A stretch of 11,296 nt of DNA from a candidate division WOR-3 bacterium (lineage in GTDB: Bacteria > Hydrothermota > UBA3072 > B12-G15): contig CBFGJG010000058.1 of the NCBI GenBank assembly GCA_965649055.1, positions 1 through 11,296 of the forward strand, written 5' to 3'. Under the pieces are notes generated by a model. It had not been told where the DNA came from, searched no databases, and was given only the letters and a program-made list of their open reading frames with translations. Of this stretch, positions 53 to 11,296 are shown piece after piece. Every line of letters begins with the position of its first letter. Within the stretch, counting starts at the first letter, position 1. The position numbers and the translations under genes were made by a program.

Positions 53-81
53 TTGACAAAATAAATATAATTTATTATTAT
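53..81 (+). promoter_or_regulatory. Putative sigma70-type promoter for the hsdM fragment
   Basis: TTGACA (53-58), 17-nt spacer, TATTAT (76-81), 14 nt before the ATG at 96. Confidence 0.55.
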
Positions 82-169
82 TTTTGTGAATAAATATGAA
101 AGAGAAAGATTTGAATTTTGAGGATAAACTCTGGAAAGGGGCTGATAAATTAAGGAAAAAGATAGAAGT

Positions 170-346
170 TCACGAGTATAAATATGTTATTTTAGGATTA
201 ATATTTTTAAGATATCTTTCCTTTTCTTTTGAAGAAAAAAAGAGAAAAATTATTGGCGAAAAACCCGAAACATCAAGGACATGTTCTATTTCTTCCTTTG
301 TCCATGTATCAAATGTGATCAAATGCTTATTTTTAAAATCCATCAT
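170..346 (-). pseudogene. 5' fragment of an ornithine/aspartate carbamoyltransferase-family gene (not in the ORF track)
   Basis: Minus strand reads AGGAGG (356-351) TTTT ATG ATG (346, 343), translating as (M)MDFKNKHLITFDTWTKEEIEHVLDVS. This resembles the OTCase/ATCase-family N-terminus (K.HL.T..D/W.T.EEI..VLD.A). After ~26 codons it runs into antisense hsdM sequence and stops at TGA 172-170. Carbamoyltransferases (YgeW type) are usual neighbours of ygeY/ssnA. Confidence 0.7.
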
Positions 347-356
347 AAAACCTCCT
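345..356. repeat. 12-bp direct repeat copy 1 (ATAAAACCTCCT; AGGAGGTTTTAT on minus)
   Basis: Identical to 7585-7596. Here it forms the SD and part of the first start codon of the carbamoyltransferase fragment. Confidence 0.85.
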
Positions 357-358
357 GT

Positions 359-1012
359 TTAAATTAAGTATTTCTCAAATTCTTTTAAATTTTTAATAAA
401 AAATTCCTTTACTTCATTCCATTTTACAGGAATAAGTGTATCTAACTCTGGTTCTATCTCAGCATCATCAAAATAAACAAGGCTTTTCAATATATGGAAG
501 TAATTTATATTATAACCTTCAAAACGTTTTTTAAGAATCTTTATACCATCTTTTATACTTATTTTTTTTAGTTTAAATGAAAAATAGATATCATAGAAAT
601 CTTTTCTGCTTCCTCTTTGTGATAATGTTTTAAACTTTTCCGCTAATATATCTCTCCAATCTGCAACAAATATTTTTTTAAACTTAATTTTTTTGAACCT
701 TAATGGAACTTCGTAATATAGAAAAGAAACCTTAACATTATTTATTTCACAATGGAGTGTGCGTGTAAAAACAGAATTTTCTTTGTAATTTTTGTATTTA
801 TGTTGGAGATATATTGAAATTTTTTCTGGTTTAAAATGTTTAATTGTAAAAAAATCAAGATCAATGGAACGTCTATGTCCTAATTGCAATGAAAGTCCTG
901 TTCCTCCACCAAGATAGAAATCTAATTTTTCTATCTCATCGTTTAAATCTTCAATAATACTATATAATTCTTTTGAAATACAATTTGGATATAAATTATT
1001 AACTGATTTCAT
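359..1012 (-). CDS. AbiEii/AbiGii-family (DUF1814-like) nucleotidyltransferase, putative toxin
   Basis: 217 aa with FYLGGGTGLSLQLGHRRSIDLDFF (GGT...R.S.D.D Pol-beta-type NTase motif) and K...RGSRKDFYDIY motif. The start overlaps the upstream small gene by 14 nt. Confidence 0.9.
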   Translation of the reverse strand: MKSVNNLYPNCISKELYSIIEDLNDEIEKLDFYLGGGTGLSLQLGHRRSIDLDFFTIKHFKPEKISIYLQHKYKNYKENSVFTRTLHCEINNVKVSFLYYEVPLRFKKIKFKKIFVADWRDILAEKFKTLSQRGSRKDFYDIYFSFKLKKISIKDGIKILKKRFEGYNINYFHILKSLVYFDDAEIEPELDTLIPVKWNEVKEFFIKNLKEFEKYLI

Positions 1013-1241
1013 AGTATAACTTTAAGAAATTTAATGTCTTTTTGTCTAAATATCTATTGTTTTTTATAATACTTTTAATCTCATTATCGGAGAATTCCTT
1101 CTTTAACCATTTAATTGCCCTTTCATCTCCAAAATTCAAGATACGGGAAATCACAAATTTTGAATGAATCTTCAAATCAATTTTTTCGATCTTAACATCC
1201 CAGAAAAGATGTATTAAATATTTTGGGATTTTTTTACTCAT
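999..1241 (-). CDS. DUF6922-like small protein, putative antitoxin
   Basis: 80 aa with LFWDV...IDL..H..FVI.RILNFGD signature, typical of small genes directly upstream of AbiEii-type NTases; overlaps the toxin start. Confidence 0.8.
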   Translation of the reverse strand: MSKKIPKYLIHLFWDVKIEKIDLKIHSKFVISRILNFGDERAIKWLKKEFSDNEIKSIIKNNRYLDKKTLNFLKLYYEIS

Positions 1242-1247
1242 AGAAGC

Positions 1248-1275
1248 ATTTTACCTTAATTATTTTCCAAGTCAA
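1248..1275 (-). promoter_or_regulatory. Putative promoter of the TA operon (leaderless-type)
   Basis: TTGACT (1275-1270), 16-nt spacer, TAAAAT (1253-1248), then 6 nt to the ATG at 1241; no room for an SD between -10 and ATG. Confidence 0.55.
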
Positions 1276-1761
1276 GTTATAAATCAAAGTTCATACACTT
1301 GGTGGACATTTAAGATTCCATAATTAAATAGCACTTTTTAATTTTCAACCTTTACAATTTATACTATTCTATTACAAAATTTAATAACTGTGATCACCAA
1401 ATCTCAATTCGGTGTAAAAAAGATGAAATTCCAATAAGTTAGCAATACAAGCCTGTTAACTTTCTTTATGATAAAAATTAAAAAAGTCATTTCGGGATTT
1501 GTGAACGTTTAAATAAATTCTATAATCAATACGTAGTAATCTGTTTTTTAATTTAAAAGTCAGATGTAATATATCTAAAAGGTATATTTATTTCTCTTTT
1601 GCTTATTTATTAATTTTACAATATTTTTAAAGTTTTTAAGAAAAGTTAATGAAAGTATAGTACACGCAATAATGAGTATTCTTTCATCTGTATTCAAAAT
1701 GAATAATGTCCAAAAACCTGCGGCAAATTATGTTCTTGATGTAGTTTTTTATTTTACGCTA

Positions 1762-4749
1762 TTACTTGACAAGAGACTTTATTTTATCAGCAAAATCATT
1801 AAAATTGTCAAACCAGTATTGTCTGTAATTATCTAAAATCCCTGCAATTCCTTGCCTCGGTTTGAGCAATAGTTTTACATTTATAACAAATCCATTGTAT
1901 GAAAAATCCCTGCTCTGTTTTTTCCCACAAAGATCGATTTCAAATATCCTTGAAAAGCCGTCAATTTTTCTGTACCCATCTACATGTTCTGTCCCTTTCG
2001 GATCAACAAACAAAATCAAATAATTTTTGTCTTTTTGTGCCCAAAATATAAAATCTGGCTTGAATTTAGCAATCATATTGTCTTTTGGACTGTAGTAAGG
2101 AATAAAAACTTCATCCATCGTTTGGTCAATTTTTGAAAACATCCACCAGTCAAATTGTGAAAAAATATTTCCTGGTTGAGCAAGATATTCTTCCAGTTGT
2201 TCAATAAATCGCACTTCACTATCAACATTGATAATATGATTTAGATAATCAATTTTTTCTGTCTCTGAAACTATCACCGGAAGGTAGTAATGATTAGCCA
2301 AATACTTGATTTTGATTCTTTGGTTTTTGATTTCGTATTTTCCAGCTTCTTCAAATAACTTTAATTGTTTTCCATATTCTTCGGGGGGGATTTTCCCATA
2401 ATTGTTTTGTAATTCTTTTCTCTTTTCTGGATATTGCTTTATAAAATCAATCTTCTTTCTGATTTCTTCGTATTTTTCGCCATCGCTAAATCTAACCTTT
2501 TTGAAATGCACAATTTCGTTTTCTAGTTTCTTGAATTTCTCAAATTCTTTGCTCTTGACTCCCAGATAATTAAAAATTCGGTTAAGAATTAACTCTGGCG
2601 CAAAAAGCGAATCCCTCTCGCCAAAGTCAAAATATCGCTCTTGGTCTATAAAACTTTCTTTCGCTTTCTTCAAAACTTTTACTTCACAATCGTATTTAGT
2701 TAAAGCGATTTTATCTCCTAAAAAGTCATAAAATTGTTTTGTCTGCTCAAAATCTTGTTGACTAATAAAATATTTTTGGATATTTTTCTCCTCAGCAAAA
2801 ATTCTATCGGAATTCTTATAAACTGGCACCAAAAGAAGATGCCTCTCAGCTTCTGGATTTAGTATAAACGCTTCGCCTAAATCTCTATCCTGTCTTTCGG
2901 CCCTTAAAGTAGCGATTATCTCTTTTAAGTTTTGCGCATTTGTTCCAAAAACAAACAAGCTCTCAATCGGCAAAATCAGATTCTGAATTTTCTCAAATAT
3001 ACTTTTTTCTACTACTTTTGCGTTAAATAGATTCTGAAGCCGCCTTCTTTGGTGTTTTTGCGGTTCTATTCTGACTCCTCTGCCAACCGATTGAAGAACG
3101 AATTTTTTAGCATCGCTTCCAACTCCAATATTTACGAATAAAACAATATTGGGTCTGTTAGAGTCCCAACCCTCATAAAAAGAACGAGAACCCATTAAAA
3201 TATTTATATCTGAATCATCTCTATTAATCGCCTTAAAGTAACTCTCATTATCATAACTTTCATTTATTTCATATCCTTCAAGTTTATCTTTAAGCCATCC
3301 AGAGATATCACCTATTTTTATTAGAGCAAACGGTTTTTCAGCAGTCTTGAGTTTAAAAATCAATTCATTTTTGTTGCCAGGAATTTTCAAAACCTCAATA
3401 TTCCCAGAAGTTTCTGCGTTAAAAACATATTTTAAGATATATTCATATTTCAATTCTGAAATTAAATAGACATCTATCAAAATCTCCAATTCTTCAAACT
3501 CAAATTTTGAGTGGTTTATAAACTCCTGGACAAGTTCTTGCTTCACACTACTTAACAAATCTAATCTGATTTCATTTTTGGCAATCTTTTCCAATTCATT
3601 AAAAAACAACTTTAAATCTGCTTCTTTCTTTTTTTCCCTTTTCCCTTTATCTTCTTTCTTACCATAGACTGTATTAACCAGCGTCAAAAGTAGCGGGCGG
3701 TGGTATAGCGAGCCATTAACTTTTCTGATTTTTTCAAAATACTTATTGATATAAGTTAAAAGCAAAAGCGTCTTCAAAACGATTTTTTGTTTTTCAATCG
3801 GCGAAAAGTCGCCTCGCCCGCGAAACGCGCTGATTTCGGCAGAAGATACATAAATGTGTTTGCCGTATCCTTCTTCAACATACCTTGAAAGGTTAAAGTT
3901 AAAAGCACAAGTAGCAAAATCTCTTGGGTCAGTGAAGGTTGCAGAAAAATTAAATAAAAATCCATTTCTTGAAAGTATGGAGTATAAAATCTGCCGTTTG
4001 CTTTCTTCTTTGTCGCCTTTATGGGCTTCGTCTAAAAGAATATACCACTGACCGCTATTATCGTAGTTTTTAAAATTGACAATTTTTTCTTTATGCTCGT
4101 CAGAAATCAAATCAGAACGATAATAAAAAACAGTAATTTCGTTTTTGGCAAATGGCAGGGCGTTTTCCCGCTTGACGCTTTCATAATCTCTCAAACTTTT
4201 AAGGTTTATCTTTGTGTCAAAATTAAAACTGTTAAACTCCTCAACATGATTTTTGAATTGGTCCAAAAGGTCATCGCGGTGCGCCAGAAAAAGTATATCG
4301 TGCTTTGGCAATTCTTTTTCAGCGATGAGTTTGCCTAGAAGCTCAATCAGTTTAACGATAATTAAGGTTTTGCCTGAACCGGTCGCCATCCAAAAACTCA
4401 TTCGGTTTATGAAATGAGCAAATGAGATTTTGTTATCAATAACCGGATAATCTTCAGGATATTCCAAAAGATACTTTGCGGTTTTGCTATCCTGTTTTTT
4501 CTTTAAGTCATAATCAAAATTTTCTTCAAGGCCATTGAGTTTGTAATGTTCAAACAATGCTTTTTTATTAGCATTTTTATCTTTAAAATAAAGCCAAATT
4601 CCCCTTAGAGCATTTCTCAAAGCATTTTGCTGAAAATCAAAAAGCGTCTTATCCTTTGAAAACCGCACAAAGTCAAATCCCTGCCATTTTGCAGGTAGGC
4701 TATCAAAAGGAATGTCGTCTAAAATATCTTGAAGATATAATTTGCTCAT
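1762..4749 (-). CDS. res: Type III restriction endonuclease Res subunit (SF2 helicase/ATPase + PD-(D/E)xK nuclease)
   Basis: 995 aa with Walker A MATGSGKT, LLDEAHK, motif III FSATF, EGWD, QSVGRGVR and C-terminal KPDF...FVDPKG nuclease motif. Starts 1 nt after the mod stop. Confidence 0.92.
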   Translation of the reverse strand: MSKLYLQDILDDIPFDSLPAKWQGFDFVRFSKDKTLFDFQQNALRNALRGIWLYFKDKNANKKALFEHYKLNGLEENFDYDLKKKQDSKTAKYLLEYPEDYPVIDNKISFAHFINRMSFWMATGSGKTLIIVKLIELLGKLIAEKELPKHDILFLAHRDDLLDQFKNHVEEFNSFNFDTKINLKSLRDYESVKRENALPFAKNEITVFYYRSDLISDEHKEKIVNFKNYDNSGQWYILLDEAHKGDKEESKRQILYSILSRNGFLFNFSATFTDPRDFATCAFNFNLSRYVEEGYGKHIYVSSAEISAFRGRGDFSPIEKQKIVLKTLLLLTYINKYFEKIRKVNGSLYHRPLLLTLVNTVYGKKEDKGKREKKKEADLKLFFNELEKIAKNEIRLDLLSSVKQELVQEFINHSKFEFEELEILIDVYLISELKYEYILKYVFNAETSGNIEVLKIPGNKNELIFKLKTAEKPFALIKIGDISGWLKDKLEGYEINESYDNESYFKAINRDDSDINILMGSRSFYEGWDSNRPNIVLFVNIGVGSDAKKFVLQSVGRGVRIEPQKHQRRRLQNLFNAKVVEKSIFEKIQNLILPIESLFVFGTNAQNLKEIIATLRAERQDRDLGEAFILNPEAERHLLLVPVYKNSDRIFAEEKNIQKYFISQQDFEQTKQFYDFLGDKIALTKYDCEVKVLKKAKESFIDQERYFDFGERDSLFAPELILNRIFNYLGVKSKEFEKFKKLENEIVHFKKVRFSDGEKYEEIRKKIDFIKQYPEKRKELQNNYGKIPPEEYGKQLKLFEEAGKYEIKNQRIKIKYLANHYYLPVIVSETEKIDYLNHIINVDSEVRFIEQLEEYLAQPGNIFSQFDWWMFSKIDQTMDEVFIPYYSPKDNMIAKFKPDFIFWAQKDKNYLILFVDPKGTEHVDGYRKIDGFSRIFEIDLCGKKQSRDFSYNGFVINVKLLLKPRQGIAGILDNYRQYWFDNFNDFADKIKSLVK

Positions 4750-4750
4750 A

Positions 4751-7198
4751 TCATTCCCACCAAATTAGGGGCTTAATGAGTTTGTAATCCAAATCTTTGA
4801 TATTGATTTTTGTCCCGTCTTCAAACTCTACATCGCCATCGGTTATTTTCTTAATCCACTTGCCTGTTAGGTTAGATAAAGTTTCGGCTATGTCTATATT
4901 CGGATAGAGTTTTGATAAATCTACTTTGACTTTGTTATTTTCATAATCAATCTCTAACGCTTTAAGCATCTTTTCATCTTTTAAGAAAACATATTCCTGA
5001 TAGGGACTTCTGCCAGGTATATTAAACAAATCTCCATCTTCGTATTTGCAATTCGCCAGCGCTTCCTCGTATTGCTCAAGTTCGTAATATTTGAAAAACC
5101 CGCCGCCTTGATATTCTTTGACTTCTTTTGAAATACCTGATTTATCATAAGCCAAAACCTTTTTCATCCTCGGCAAAACTACGCTATAAAAATGTTCTCC
5201 CATCTCAACGCCAATCCATTTTCTGCCAAGTTTATGGGCAACGGCTGTGGTTGTGCCTGAGCCAAGGAAAAAGTCGAGAATTATTAAATGTTCTTCATAT
5301 TCCATTCCTTCAATTACTCTTTTTAGTAATATCTCCGAATTTTCAGTCGCAAAAAAAGTATTATGGGTTTCATAACTCTTTATATCTGTCCAATTTGTAT
5401 CTAACAATAATTCTGGTTCTTTAAGATATTCTGGCATTCCTCTAACTTCATTGTTCTGTGTATCAATATATGTCCTGCCGGGATTAATTCTTATCCAGCC
5501 TAGTTTTTCGTATTCGGTTATCTTTTGTTGAGATAAACCCCAATGTTGTCCTTTAGGTGGCAACCAAGGTTTACCGAAAAAATATCTAACTTGTAATTCA
5601 TATGTTTTTCTTTGCCCCGGCATATCTAAAGAAATCCATTGTCTGTCTTCTTCTCTAATTTTTCTTTTTGCCCCCTTAAATGATATTTTATTTTTATCCT
5701 TTGCATAAAAGAAAATTGAATCAATTCCTGTTAGATATTGATTAGTTAATCCTTTAGGCACATAACCTCTCTTAACAAAGATTTCATTTCTAAAATTACC
5801 CTTGTCAAAAATCTCATCCATCAAACATCTCACAATCCAGTTTCCATTATAATCGCACCTTACAAAAATGCTTCCTTTTTCATTCAGCCAGTCTTTCGCA
5901 ATTCTTAATCTATTTTCAAGCAATGTTGCCCAATTAGCGTCTTTGTAGTTTGTGCGGTATAAAAACTGGTCAGAAGAATCTAAATTAAACGGCGGATCAA
6001 TATAAATTGTCTGCACTTTCTCTTTGAATTTCGGCAGGATTGTGTTTAATGCCTGATAGTTTTCGCTTTTTATCAGCCAGCCGTCTAAAGATTTATCCAA
6101 GTCCTCAAACTGACTTAAAATCTCAAGCTCTAAATCCTTGAAATACTTTGTATCAATCGGCAAATGTTCATATTTTTTTGATAAATGTTTGCCGGTTAAA
6201 TCGGTTTCAAAAACATCTTTTACTTTAAAATTCTCATCTACTATACCTAACTCCTTCCATTCTTTAATTTGCTCACTGATATTTTTATGATTGAGAATTT
6301 TATCAATAAGTTTTTCATCTTTAATCCTGTCCAATGTAATCACGTAATTTGAATTTTTAACAAACTTCGGCTTGTTCCAAATTTTTACCAGTTCATCTTC
6401 AAACTGCGAAATAAAATCAATAATCTTGAAGGCAATGTCTTTTAGGATTTGTAATTGATTGACTCTATCCGTGCTCCACTCTTTAGCTCCTTCCCAGAAG
6501 TACTGATAACTCCAGAGTTTAAATTGCTCCTGTAAAAATGCTTTTGCGTTTTTATTGATAAAGAAATCAACCTCGCTTTGCTTTTCAAAAACTCTAAAAG
6601 CGCGTTCTAATTGTTCTTCAGAAATGGCAATGCCTTTTCTTTTTATGGCTTTTAATATCTTTTCTGTTTTTGTTTTCGTGCCTTTTTCGGAGTATTGAAT
6701 GCTGAAAACAATGGTTTGGTCTTCTTTGACTTTATCTAACTCAAAAACCAGCGAGCGTTTTTCATTGGCTTTTTTGTTTTCTATTTTTGAAGCATCAAAG
6801 TAAAACTTGAATCCGTCAAACTCAACCGGCAAACTTCTAAAAATCCGGTCAGTTTTGACATAATAAAGCATCTGCGTTTTCCAGAAAAGAATAACATCTT
6901 TATCATCGGTATAAACTTTTTCGTAGACATTATTGTGAAATGGTGTTGAGTTGAAATAGATTGAACCGCTTTCTGTAAAATAACGGCTGAAAAAAGAATA
7001 GAGCTTGTCAAAAAGTTCATCCCTAAATGAAGGGTATTTCTCTAACGCTTTTTCTATATCTTCTTTAAGAAGTTCCTCGATTTTGCGATAGTAATTTGAT
7101 TTTATTCTCATTAAATTAATGAAACCGCCTTGGCCTTCGATCTTGGCGCCTATAAAAACATCTTGTAATGCTTTATAAAATTTTTGTTCTTTAGTCAT
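4751..7198 (-). CDS. mod: Type III RM DNA methyltransferase Mod subunit (beta-class amino-MTase, probably m6A)
   Basis: 815 aa with catalytic IYIDPPFN, then a variable region, then SAM-binding LDFFLGSGTT and WIGVE. GGAGG SD at 7210-7206; coupled to res. Confidence 0.92.
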   Translation of the reverse strand: MTKEQKFYKALQDVFIGAKIEGQGGFINLMRIKSNYYRKIEELLKEDIEKALEKYPSFRDELFDKLYSFFSRYFTESGSIYFNSTPFHNNVYEKVYTDDKDVILFWKTQMLYYVKTDRIFRSLPVEFDGFKFYFDASKIENKKANEKRSLVFELDKVKEDQTIVFSIQYSEKGTKTKTEKILKAIKRKGIAISEEQLERAFRVFEKQSEVDFFINKNAKAFLQEQFKLWSYQYFWEGAKEWSTDRVNQLQILKDIAFKIIDFISQFEDELVKIWNKPKFVKNSNYVITLDRIKDEKLIDKILNHKNISEQIKEWKELGIVDENFKVKDVFETDLTGKHLSKKYEHLPIDTKYFKDLELEILSQFEDLDKSLDGWLIKSENYQALNTILPKFKEKVQTIYIDPPFNLDSSDQFLYRTNYKDANWATLLENRLRIAKDWLNEKGSIFVRCDYNGNWIVRCLMDEIFDKGNFRNEIFVKRGYVPKGLTNQYLTGIDSIFFYAKDKNKISFKGAKRKIREEDRQWISLDMPGQRKTYELQVRYFFGKPWLPPKGQHWGLSQQKITEYEKLGWIRINPGRTYIDTQNNEVRGMPEYLKEPELLLDTNWTDIKSYETHNTFFATENSEILLKRVIEGMEYEEHLIILDFFLGSGTTTAVAHKLGRKWIGVEMGEHFYSVVLPRMKKVLAYDKSGISKEVKEYQGGGFFKYYELEQYEEALANCKYEDGDLFNIPGRSPYQEYVFLKDEKMLKALEIDYENNKVKVDLSKLYPNIDIAETLSNLTGKWIKKITDGDVEFEDGTKINIKDLDYKLIKPLIWWE

Positions 7199-7244
7199 AT
7201 AATTGCCTCCAGATCTCTCTTATTATAAATTTTCTTGTTTTTAA

Positions 7245-7286
7245 GCCTATAAAAAACATCGAGTAAAAATTATAGAAATTTTGTCC
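7245..7286. repeat. Degenerate direct copy of the mod 5' coding sequence (7148-7189)
   Basis: Manual alignment gives 33 matches in 43 columns with two single-base gaps; offset 97 bp. Confidence 0.65.
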
Positions 7287-7307
7287 AACTTTTATTAGAT
7301 AAAAGTT
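7287..7307. promoter_or_regulatory. Perfect inverted repeat AACTTTTAT-TAG-ATAAAAGTT, possible operator upstream of mod
   Basis: 9-bp perfect arms with a 3-nt spacer, ~90 nt upstream of the mod start. Function is inferred only. Confidence 0.4.
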
Positions 7308-7389
7308 ACATAATAGTCTTATTTGTTCCTTTAACAATTTAATTTCACCAAAAATACTTTTGTTCTTGTATTGAATCATTCTACACACA

Positions 7390-7418
7390 ACAATATATTT
7401 ATCATTGAGATTTGTCAA
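7390..7418 (-). promoter_or_regulatory. Putative sigma70 promoter for mod-res
   Basis: TTGACA (7418-7413), 17-nt spacer, TATTGT (7395-7390). Confidence 0.45.
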
Positions 7419-7582
7419 GACCAAAAAACCAATTTAAAATTAGTCTAAAAATGTTAAATATGAATAAATAGGTTAGTTATAAAATTTTAAATTATTCTTC
7501 TTTTTTCCTTTCTTTTTTTATTGATTAAATTTTTCATTAATTTTTCTTTTTGTATGTTGTCTCATCATTTTCCAAAAATTGA

Positions 7583-8764
7583 TTATAAAACCTCCTTTAA
7601 TCTTAAAATATACCCTGCAATGAAGGCAGATGAAATTGTGAGTTCTTTTATTGAAATCTTCTCATTCGGTGCATGTGCGTATTTTTCTTTCCCGGGACCG
7701 AACCCAATTGCAGGAATCCTGTGCTTCCCGCAAATCGCAACACCATTCGTTGAAAATATCCATTTACCAATAACTGGTTTTTTCTTAAATAATGACTTAT
7801 ATGTTTCTTTCGCAATATTCACAATCCTGTGATTATCAGGTATTTTCCAGGTTGGAAAATATTTTTCTTGCTTAAAAACTTCACCTTTATAACTTTTCCT
7901 GTCATAAACAGGAATAATTATCTTTCCATCTTTTTTCACAATCTCTTTTAATTCTTTTATTGCTGATTTTTTATCTTCACCAAATGTTAATCTTCTATCA
8001 AGATGTATCTTAGCATAATCAGGTATTGCACACAAAGAAGGTGAAGATGATATAAATTCAGTTACTGCAACTGTTCCTTTACCAAGAAATTTATCCTTCT
8101 TTAATCTTTTATTAAGTTTGTCTATCTTCAAAACCCTGTCAGATGCAATAGACACTGCATTCTTTCCCCTTTCAGGTGCAGAACCATGCGCAGACAAACC
8201 TTTAAACTCTATTTCTATCTCCATCCTTCCACGCTGACCTATATTTATTTTACCATCGGTTGGTTCTGTTAATATTACAAGTTCCGGCCTTATTCCATCT
8301 TTCTCAATGATATAATTCCAGCATAAACCATCACAATCTTCTTCCATAACTGAAAATACAAAAAGTATGGTCGTACCATCAAAACCTATCTCTTTTAATA
8401 TCTTCCCTGCTGTTATCATTGATGCAGCACCACCTTTCTGGTCGGACGAACCCCTTCCATATACAAAACCATCCTTTATATCACCTGAAAATGGCGGAAA
8501 ATCCCATAATGAGCGTTCGCCAACATCAACTGTATCAATATGTGCATCGATTGCTATTATCTTTTCGCCTTTCCCAATTTTGCCAATAAGATTCCCCAGG
8601 TTATCTGTCCAGACATCATCAAAATTTTCTTTTTTCAAAATAGATTCTATCTTTTCAATAACATCTTTCTCTTCACCACTTAAAGATTTTATCTTAACTA
8701 TCTCGGAAAGATTCTGCGCTGTATAATCTTCATATTTTTTTGCAATTTCTAATATTTTATCCAC
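7583..8764 (-). CDS. ygeY: YgeY-family M20 metallohydrolase (anaerobic purine/ureido-compound catabolism)
   Basis: 393 aa with DAHIDTV, GRGSSDQKGG, EEDCDGLCW, GQRGRMEI, SAHGSAPERG, FSTNGV, GFGPG...AHAPNE. GTG start with AAGGAGG SD, overlapping the upstream stop (TAGTG). Confidence 0.88.
   Translation of the reverse strand: MDKILEIAKKYEDYTAQNLSEIVKIKSLSGEEKDVIEKIESILKKENFDDVWTDNLGNLIGKIGKGEKIIAIDAHIDTVDVGERSLWDFPPFSGDIKDGFVYGRGSSDQKGGAASMITAGKILKEIGFDGTTILFVFSVMEEDCDGLCWNYIIEKDGIRPELVILTEPTDGKINIGQRGRMEIEIEFKGLSAHGSAPERGKNAVSIASDRVLKIDKLNKRLKKDKFLGKGTVAVTEFISSSPSLCAIPDYAKIHLDRRLTFGEDKKSAIKELKEIVKKDGKIIIPVYDRKSYKGEVFKQEKYFPTWKIPDNHRIVNIAKETYKSLFKKKPVIGKWIFSTNGVAICGKHRIPAIGFGPGKEKYAHAPNEKISIKELTISSAFIAGYILRLKEVL
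7585..7596. repeat. 12-bp direct repeat copy 2 (ATAAAACCTCCT)
   Basis: Last codons of ygeY (K-E-V-L-stop). Contains a perfect AGGAGG SD with no properly spaced start codon after it. Identical to 345-356. Confidence 0.85.
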
Positions 8765-11175: not shown

Positions 11176-11257
11176 ATAAAAAAATATACCATTTTGGAAA
11201 AGATCATGCACATGGTGGTACAGTTAAGATAGTGAAGATAGGGGTAATGAATGAAGA

Positions 11258-11285
11258 GAGGATTGCCCTGGGGAGGGCAATCCTC
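11258..11285 (-). terminator. Perfect 12-bp GC-rich hairpin, probable intrinsic terminator of an upstream transcript
   Basis: GAGGATTGCCCT-GGGG-AGGGCAATCCTC on plus. On minus it is followed by a pyrimidine-rich but imperfect U tract (TCTTCATTCATT). Confidence 0.5.
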
Positions 11286-11296
11286 AAAGGAATTGC

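Follow-up and report, generated by a model that had tools for sequence, protein, structure and literature searches.

Insertion of a Type III restriction-modification pair and an AbiEii-like gene pair between ygeY and a carbamoyltransferase gene in a candidate division WOR-3 bacterium, with a probable repeated duplication of the invaded gene start

The window analysed here, 11,296 nucleotides long, is the entire contig C58 of an 85-contig, 2.08-Mb assembly (93.8 % complete) of a candidate division WOR-3 bacterium. On its minus strand the genes ssnA-like, preA-like and ygeY of a predicted purine operon are followed by mod, res, a gene with the domain DUF6922 and an AbiEii-like gene (Table 1). 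The original prediction, made from the letters of the window alone, had described the last four genes as a defence island without integrase that entered at the Shine-Dalgarno (SD) site of a carbamoyltransferase (CT) gene and left a 12-bp duplication. A real insertion at this site was confirmed, but the prediction had misjudged the repeat, what became of the downstream gene and how novel the arrangement is. With a probability of about 60 %, we propose that an event needing no integrase brought the Type III pair and the DUF6922/AbiEii-like pair into the ygeY-CT junction and in doing so copied the start of the CT gene (step 1), and that this start was copied again later, over 102 bp (step 2).

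Table 1 Features of the window on contig C58 (aa, amino acids; RBS, ribosome-binding site)
Feature	Position	Strand	Basis and remarks
Intact ygeY gene for 393 aa, flanking the insertion site on the left	7583..8764	-	NCBIfam NF009555, 497 bits (cut-off 321)
Probable old, decayed copy of the CT RBS and first codons, holding the left 12-mer	7567..7596	-	Match to the CT start beyond the 12-mer: 19/22 bases ungapped, 24/28 with a 2-nt gap
Type III methyltransferase gene mod, 815 aa	4751..7198	-	PADLOC MTase_III, E 1.9e-283; DPPF and FLGSG motifs present
Type III restriction subunit gene res, 995 aa	1762..4749	-	Pfam ResIII over cut-off; PADLOC REase_III, E 7.5e-21; helicase and PD-(D/E)xK-like motifs
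DUF6922 gene, 80 aa, partner of the AbiEii-like gene	999..1241	-	Pfam PF21956; no PADLOC match; putative antitoxin
AbiEii-like nucleotidyltransferase gene, 217 aa, complete	359..1012	-	Pfam PF08843, 52 bits (cut-off 22.5); relatives align to residue 217
Perfect, apparently recent duplicate of the CT start, made up of the RBS, which includes the right 12-mer (356-345), and 29 codons from 346	260..361	-	blastn 102/102
Type I hsdM 5' stub, about 55 of about 508 codons, cut head-on at the 102-bp copy	96..259	+	Pfam HsdM_N
Promoter-like site upstream of the hsdM stub, directed into the CT stub	53..81	+	11/12 consensus match
SsnA-like amidohydrolase gene	11140-9845	-	Upstream operon gene; score below SsnA cut-off
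PreA-like flavoprotein gene, with ferredoxin	9873-8764	-	Upstream operon gene

The 12-mer AGGAGGTTTTAT (minus strand) is located at 7596-7585 and at 356-345, and an orphan SD lies at the end of ygeY, both as originally described. The 7228 bp between the copies, termed cargo in the following, hold four open reading frames (ORFs) only, mod-res and the putative toxin-antitoxin pair; in agreement with the earlier reading none of them encodes a recombinase or transposase. The adjacent mod and res genes with their catalytic motifs represent a predicted Type III restriction-modification system. The stop codon of the AbiEii-like gene forms the first 3 bases of a 102-bp repeat, and the right copy of the 12-mer begins 2 nt past this stop.

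An empty site was present in relatives. The metagenome locus L060 (~75 % DNA identity) aligns to the window from 11098 to 7585 and to contig C62 of the same assembly from 3932 on, and its two alignments overlap by 12 bases, at the position of the 12-mer. In L060 the stop of ygeY (79 % identity) overlaps the CT start by 4 nt, the SD lies within the last ygeY codons, and the empty site carries one diverged copy of the repeat. The order of the ssnA-like and preA-like genes is shared with L060, and so is the order on C62, where an intact CT gene for 335 aa is followed by thrC-like, mocA-like and xdh genes. With the CT as query 98 loci were obtained in addition to the genome's own copy; by their labels 34 of them were without one of the two genes, and eight were repeat junctions, leaving 56 distinct ygeY/CT junctions. 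The two genes were adjacent in 46 of these 56, overlapping in 22, and separated by a larger gap in the other 10. Matches to mod, res, the AbiEii-like gene, DUF6922 or hsdM were found in none of the 98 loci. The adjacency in relatives and the missing cargo matches indicate that the empty state is ancestral. Judged from these alignments, the insertion at the ygeY-CT junction is real, and the native coupling of the two genes and the entry of the cargo at their junction had been predicted correctly.

The 12-mer itself carries little of this argument. It occurs 20 times in the assembly, 0.49 times being expected from base composition, and is followed by ATG in 19 of the 20 copies with the ygeY-side copy as sole exception. 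The original prediction had noted that the other SDs in the window (mod, ygeY) have different spacers, and had named a frequent RBS variant as the finding that would speak against a duplication. The 12-mer is such a variant: the spacer TTTT ties with AAAA as the commonest, with 19 each among 178 starts of the type AGGAGG-N4-ATG (11 % share). With 20 copies and the commonest spacer, the 12-mer alone is weak evidence of a duplication. The informative left repeat appears to be decayed and about 22-30 bp rather than 12 bp long, as the match to the CT start continues beyond the 12-mer, over 19/22 bases in the ungapped comparison. Only 12 bp are perfect and the length does not exceed 30 bp; the signal fades past ~30-60 nt. 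In the left stub both ATGs are mutated, and the ygeY stop is retained. In a comparison of the left stub with 176 starts of the same RBS class, the CT start took first rank at 16 and at 24 nt. The left stub and the CT start of this genome share TTTT as spacer and 3 additional bases behind the stop; L060 has neither. Thus the left repeat is very probably a true, decayed target duplication.

The cargo had been taken for one island, a view that the comparisons did not bear out. Fit to the codon use of the genome, expressed as percentile among 1525 ORFs, was 0.4 for mod, 0.2 for res and 2.6 for the short DUF6922 gene, versus 95 for the AbiEii-like gene, 49 for ygeY and 72 for the CT. The codon use of mod-res is foreign, that of the AbiEii-like gene native-like. 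In 271 other genomes of the phylum, 24 had a match to res and 42 a match to the AbiEii-like gene, and 19 loci of each were examined, with flanks of at most ~1.5 kb and much less in several. DUF6922 adjoined the AbiEii-like gene in 18 of the 19 loci. Within these flanks the DUF6922/AbiEii-like pair was beside res in 0/19 loci, and mod or res beside the AbiEii-like gene in 0/19, hence the block as a unit was not encountered elsewhere. The difference in codon use and the lack of linkage in 19 + 19 loci leave the single island unsupported; the cargo looks composite and was likely assembled in more than one step. An RBS directly after the AbiEii-like stop was seen in 0/19 other loci, and an RBS borne by the donor DNA is therefore unsupported. 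Repeats that bracket mod-res alone, from spacer to spacer, were not significant (p 0.14 direct, 0.35 inverted). Close relatives of mod-res, in pieces ~85-95 % identical, occur in all four hot-spring runs aligned to the window (1762-7198), and two other families of the phylum have res copies that are in part 86-90 % identical to this one. This distribution suggests that mod-res has been exchanged widely and recently. At one locus of a res homologue (L174) a tRNA-like 3' fragment, recognised by eye, follows the stop of the gene, which suggests an ordinary tRNA-targeted island there.

Preservation of both flanking genes had been part of the prediction. It applies to ygeY; the CT gene of the window is a 29-codon stub, which meets the 5' end of hsdM head-on at 259/260. 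Positions 260-361 are a 100 % copy of C62:3927-4028, the sequence that heads the intact CT gene on C62. There the gene is preceded by an ORF for a 1230-aa adenylate-cyclase/AAA/TPR-like protein (AC-TPR, C62 123-3815), a name that combines a reading of the sequence with PADLOC matches to cyclase and TPR proteins. Several full or partial paralogues of AC-TPR are present in the genome (C22 with 67 % identity, C48, C1 and C9), the C22 copy in two ORFs. The hsdM stub is 92 % identical over residues 1-52 to the full-length protein P0003, and full-length relatives have ~508 residues. A search of the assembly for HsdM alone gave no other match. In codon use the hsdM stub (percentile 71) and AC-TPR (50) are native-like. 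The contexts of AC-TPR and HsdM in four relatives gave no information, these relatives being too distant. The hsdM stub reads on antisense through the CT stub as an 88-aa chimeric ORF (96-362, plus strand) that converges on the end of the AbiEii-like gene. Promoter scans were at chance level, with 15 sites versus 13.4 in shuffled sequences, the candidate ahead of the hsdM stub included, and counts of terminators likewise.

Parts of the window were recovered from six hot-spring runs of two studies; four runs were aligned to the window and four to C62:3300-4700, in all cases as contigs only. Contigs of X1 bridge the junctions of the repeat to hsdM (27-361, 0 differences), to the AbiEii-like gene (332-1075) and to AC-TPR. 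Both junctions in the window and three of the four junctions of the 102-bp copies are thereby present in a second assembly. In contigs of X5 (629 nt) and X6 (1121 nt), which stem from one study and a strain ~90 % identical, the 3' end of the AbiEii-like gene runs straight into 392 nt of the CT gene, past the 102-bp point, with 38 differences, and the 102-bp sequence is single-copy. The state foreseen in the original prediction, a toxin stop directly before an intact CT gene, consequently exists in a related strain. Another X5 contig bridges ygeY to mod (7080-7624; 59 differences, 18 gaps). Among the joints listed, none unites the two 12-mers. A promoter of the AbiEii-like pair that drives the CT gene could apply to strains of the X5 type only, and promoter scans were at chance level as said above. 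Three states were observed in total: empty in the 75 % relative, cargo with intact CT in the 90 % strain, and in this genome cargo, 102-bp stub, hsdM stub, a gap, AC-TPR and the second 102-bp copy with the intact CT.

In the proposed history, foreign DNA would have been joined in step 1 at the overlapping stop and start, with a stub of at least 22-30 bp on the side of ygeY and the full RBS plus intact CT gene behind the cargo. The stub would afterwards have lost both ATGs and kept the ygeY stop. Empty site, cargo and decayed repeat can be seen today; from them we infer the duplication. In step 2 the same start would have been duplicated again, placing the AbiEii-like gene before the 29-codon stub and the truncated hsdM, while the block of CT, thrC-like, mocA and xdh genes would start from the second 102-bp copy behind AC-TPR. 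The identical copies and three of their four junctions are observed, the order and topology of this step would follow from them by reconstruction. Repair of a staggered break or a single crossover via short homology may be the mechanism, and fill-in would lead to repeats of variable length. The reuse of the site would need no SD-targeting enzyme: unless an insertion rebuilds RBS and start, the two coupled genes would not both function. The same junction reused with repeats of different length argues for break repair and selection and against a sequence-specific recombinase.

Three matches to PF00589 were obtained in the assembly, on C6, C15 and C17, and none to the resolvase family PF00239; the window has neither an integrase nor a resolvase. 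The spacers of the cargo contain no match to an attC-like pattern. With no recombinase in or beside the block, no attC-like site and no significant terminal repeats, it does not have the marks of an integrase-borne island or an integron cassette. On C6 (5-2436) a tyrosine-recombinase fragment at the contig start is followed by a possible attC-like stretch and a pair of a methylase and a candidate endonuclease gene; this may be an integron-like locus.

Several observations weigh against the proposed history. In step 1, the 12-mer had to be rejected as proof of a duplication, being a common RBS with 20 genome copies, and the relative with the empty site is just 75 % identical and differs in its spacer. 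The rank of the CT start among the 176 starts drops to 2 at 30-40 nt, to 3 at 60 and to 27 at 90, the lengths of this extension test were picked post hoc after the match was seen, and an unanchored local alignment of the left repeat was not significant (p 0.21). At 16 nt three unrelated starts score 12/16 versus 13/16 for the CT. Further relic CT starts were sought in three places, the interval from res to DUF6922, the sequence upstream on C62 and the region of hsdM, and none was significant (p 0.18-0.65); the stub missing between res and DUF6922 (p 0.18) speaks against the two-step history as well. On account of the post-hoc lengths, the near-equal unrelated starts and the p of 0.21, we read the probability of a chance match as one to a few percent. 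If the left repeat were due to chance, the cargo would have entered just after ygeY with its ancestral SD, and the CT gene would have gained an RBS of the commonest type, or the join would have used RBS-RBS microhomology, with no duplication in step 1. The frequency of the 12-mer (11 % of comparable starts) and the near-equal scores of unrelated starts fit such a course, which is nonetheless very unlikely given the first rank of the CT start at 16 and 24 nt, the 3-base insertion shared relative to L060 and the lack of an RBS right after the AbiEii-like stop in all 19 other loci. A site-specific recombinase acting in trans, e.g., the integron-like integrase fragment on C6, could have used the SD 12-mer as attachment core and moved the block as a mobile unit. 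The three tyrosine-recombinase matches, one of them before the possible attC-like site and restriction-modification pair, would provide a source for such an enzyme. The block was never a unit in the 19 res and 19 AbiEii-like loci within the flanks examined, the two repeats differ in length (~22-30 versus 102 bp), and the cargo spacers offer no attC-like pattern or significant repeat, which makes this course highly improbable.

For step 2, the interval between the starts of C58 and C62 is unassembled, so direct orientation, size and the absence of an integrase are assumptions. The start of C58 could not be linked to other contigs by blastn or exact overlap (smallest contig 5035 bp). A repeated end of the insertion sequence (IS) type, which resembles IS256, lies 122 bp before the AC-TPR gene. 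The X1 contigs leave C62 4029-4109, the join of the repeat to the intact CT, uncovered and the repeat unphased, and X1 and the assembly may stem from the same population. The ygeY-mod contig of X5 has a depth of 5.5 and the AbiEii-like-CT contig one of 38.5, hence the two may originate from different strains. With step 1 accepted, the 102-bp copies could be the breakpoints of an inversion or another rearrangement of native chromosome in an IS-rich genome, flanking no insertion, with most of the hsd operon deleted. The native-like codon use of the hsdM stub and AC-TPR, the paralogues of the latter, the absence of the rest of hsdM from the assembly, the operon broken also between the hydantoinase-like gene (C36) and ssnA, and the 36 IS-like ends all accord with a rearrangement. 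A simple inversion within hsdM would, however, put its 3' part at the other breakpoint, and C62 has none; moreover, compared with the X5/X6 state, both junctions match precisely what a target duplication would give. We regard the rearrangement as unlikely. An assembler may also have crossed the 102-bp repeat; in that case the AbiEii-like gene would run into the intact CT as in X5 and X6, and AC-TPR and the hsdM stub would enclose the CT stub at another place or on an excised circle. The X1 contigs are unable to phase the repeat, and overlaps of 77 bp at contig ends suggest a k-mer shorter than it. C58 and C62 were both assembled through the repeat, and two copies are needed either way. Reads of 150 nt or read pairs normally suffice to resolve a repeat of 102 bp, and we consider a crossed assembly quite improbable.

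In a wider reading, the coupled gene start is a reusable landing site for integrase-free insertion, hit at least two times, with RBS and first codons copied on each occasion (first ~22-30 bp, then 102 bp), whose empty, single and nested states are preserved in public data. We put this forward tentatively, with odds slightly short of even. If true, this locus would supply dated stages of a mechanism that still lacks an explanation; through its perfect 102-bp repeats the newest cargo could loop out and so re-couple the downstream purine genes to the AbiEii-like pair. The left repeat is a worked case: behind a short match to a common RBS there can be a genuine duplication that has decayed. The window also calls for caution, since a gene start beside a defence cassette may be a stub.

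The surrounding operon shows further signs of instability. The score of ygeY also exceeds the cut-off of TIGR03526 (476 versus 321.5 bits). The CT had been named ygeW, an assignment that we could not uphold: the cut-offs of the knotted YgeW-type carbamoyltransferases were not reached (TIGR03316, 201 versus 500 bits; NF005538, 212 versus 453 bits), so that "ygeW" is a positional name only. On C62 the CT is below every carbamoyltransferase cut-off tested, and a threonine-synthase-like gene comes next, as in many related loci (C62 3942-6067). The purine operon is broken a second time, between the hydantoinase-like gene on C36 and ssnA on C58, which abut in L060. Directly after the hydantoinase-like gene, a 204-bp direct repeat (97.5 %; C36:137-340 and 5309-5512) with REP-like (repetitive extragenic palindromic) hairpins surrounds an ABC exporter operon. 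An IS-like element present in many copies has its left end at window positions 11195-11296 and imperfect terminal repeats of ~27 bp; the assembly contains 36 such ends, and many contigs are broken at them. The split of the operon between C36 and C58 and the 36 IS-like ends favour a general instability over a dedicated system. Other two-copy repeats (C36 with 204 bp, C72, C4 and C56) were rejected as products of the same process, they involve REP-like hairpins or paralogous gene arrays. On C72, a longer direct repeat (186-288 and 6812-6914) with RBS, gene start and a TCTTA microsatellite is located at both ends of the 7-kb contig.

The host locus resembles the anaerobic urate/2,8-dioxopurine cluster in the genes for SsnA-like, YgeY, carbamoyltransferase and hydantoinase-like proteins and xdh (bioRxiv 10.1101/2025.04.24.650524). 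It differs in the 335-aa CT below the knotted YgeW cut-offs, the SsnA score below cut-off and the threonine-synthase-like gene next to the CT; the pathway itself is a predicted one. With AbiE, a type IV toxin-antitoxin and abortive infection system, the cargo shares an AbiEii-family nucleotidyltransferase downstream of a small overlapping gene. Here the partner is DUF6922, not of the AbiEi family and without PADLOC match, and PADLOC matches to AbiEii are weak (E 2e-8). In Haloquadratum walsbyi, strain-specific DNA without integrase is bounded by direct repeats of 4-20 bp, of which the empty site has one copy, and most of these indels have been read as deletions (PMC3119063). In contrast to these indels, the empty state of the present locus is ancestral by outgroups and the cargo is foreign.

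The insertion of restriction-modification genes with a long target duplication was reportedly first described by Nobusato et al. in 2000. According to Furuta, Abe and Kobayashi (2010, PMC2853133), restriction-modification genes of all types (I-IV) insert with variable target duplications and no mobility gene. The duplications often extend across a translation start or stop, and the target gene stays intact; one insertion entered an operon-like structure, and partial M genes occur. No tested mechanism of insertion is offered there. The novelty that the original prediction had implied is hence not supported, with repeats across translation starts and an operon insertion already on record in that paper. 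Our own literature search for SD-specific or nested reuse of one gene start found no such paper; it did not cover subscription papers and is weak evidence. Features common to the published type and the present locus are R and M genes, no mobility gene, a size below 20 kb, direct repeats and an empty site in a relative. Differences are the decayed mod-res repeat below the 30-bp cut-off of that paper, the toxin-like pair that rides along, the second, perfect 102-bp duplication with truncated hsdM and AC-TPR as visible cargo, and an empty site in a 75 % identical relative instead of the same species. In step 1, cargo, size (7228 bp) and empty site correspond to the published criteria and the length of the repeat does not reach 30 bp; it works like that kind without being a strict member. 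For step 2 the repeat exceeds 30 bp, and the cargo seen is the hsdM stub only, next to an unassembled interval and an IS-type end before AC-TPR. The kind of event is already published and no new system is represented; the value of the locus is that of a worked case, and its three-state series would be a modest help on the mechanism.

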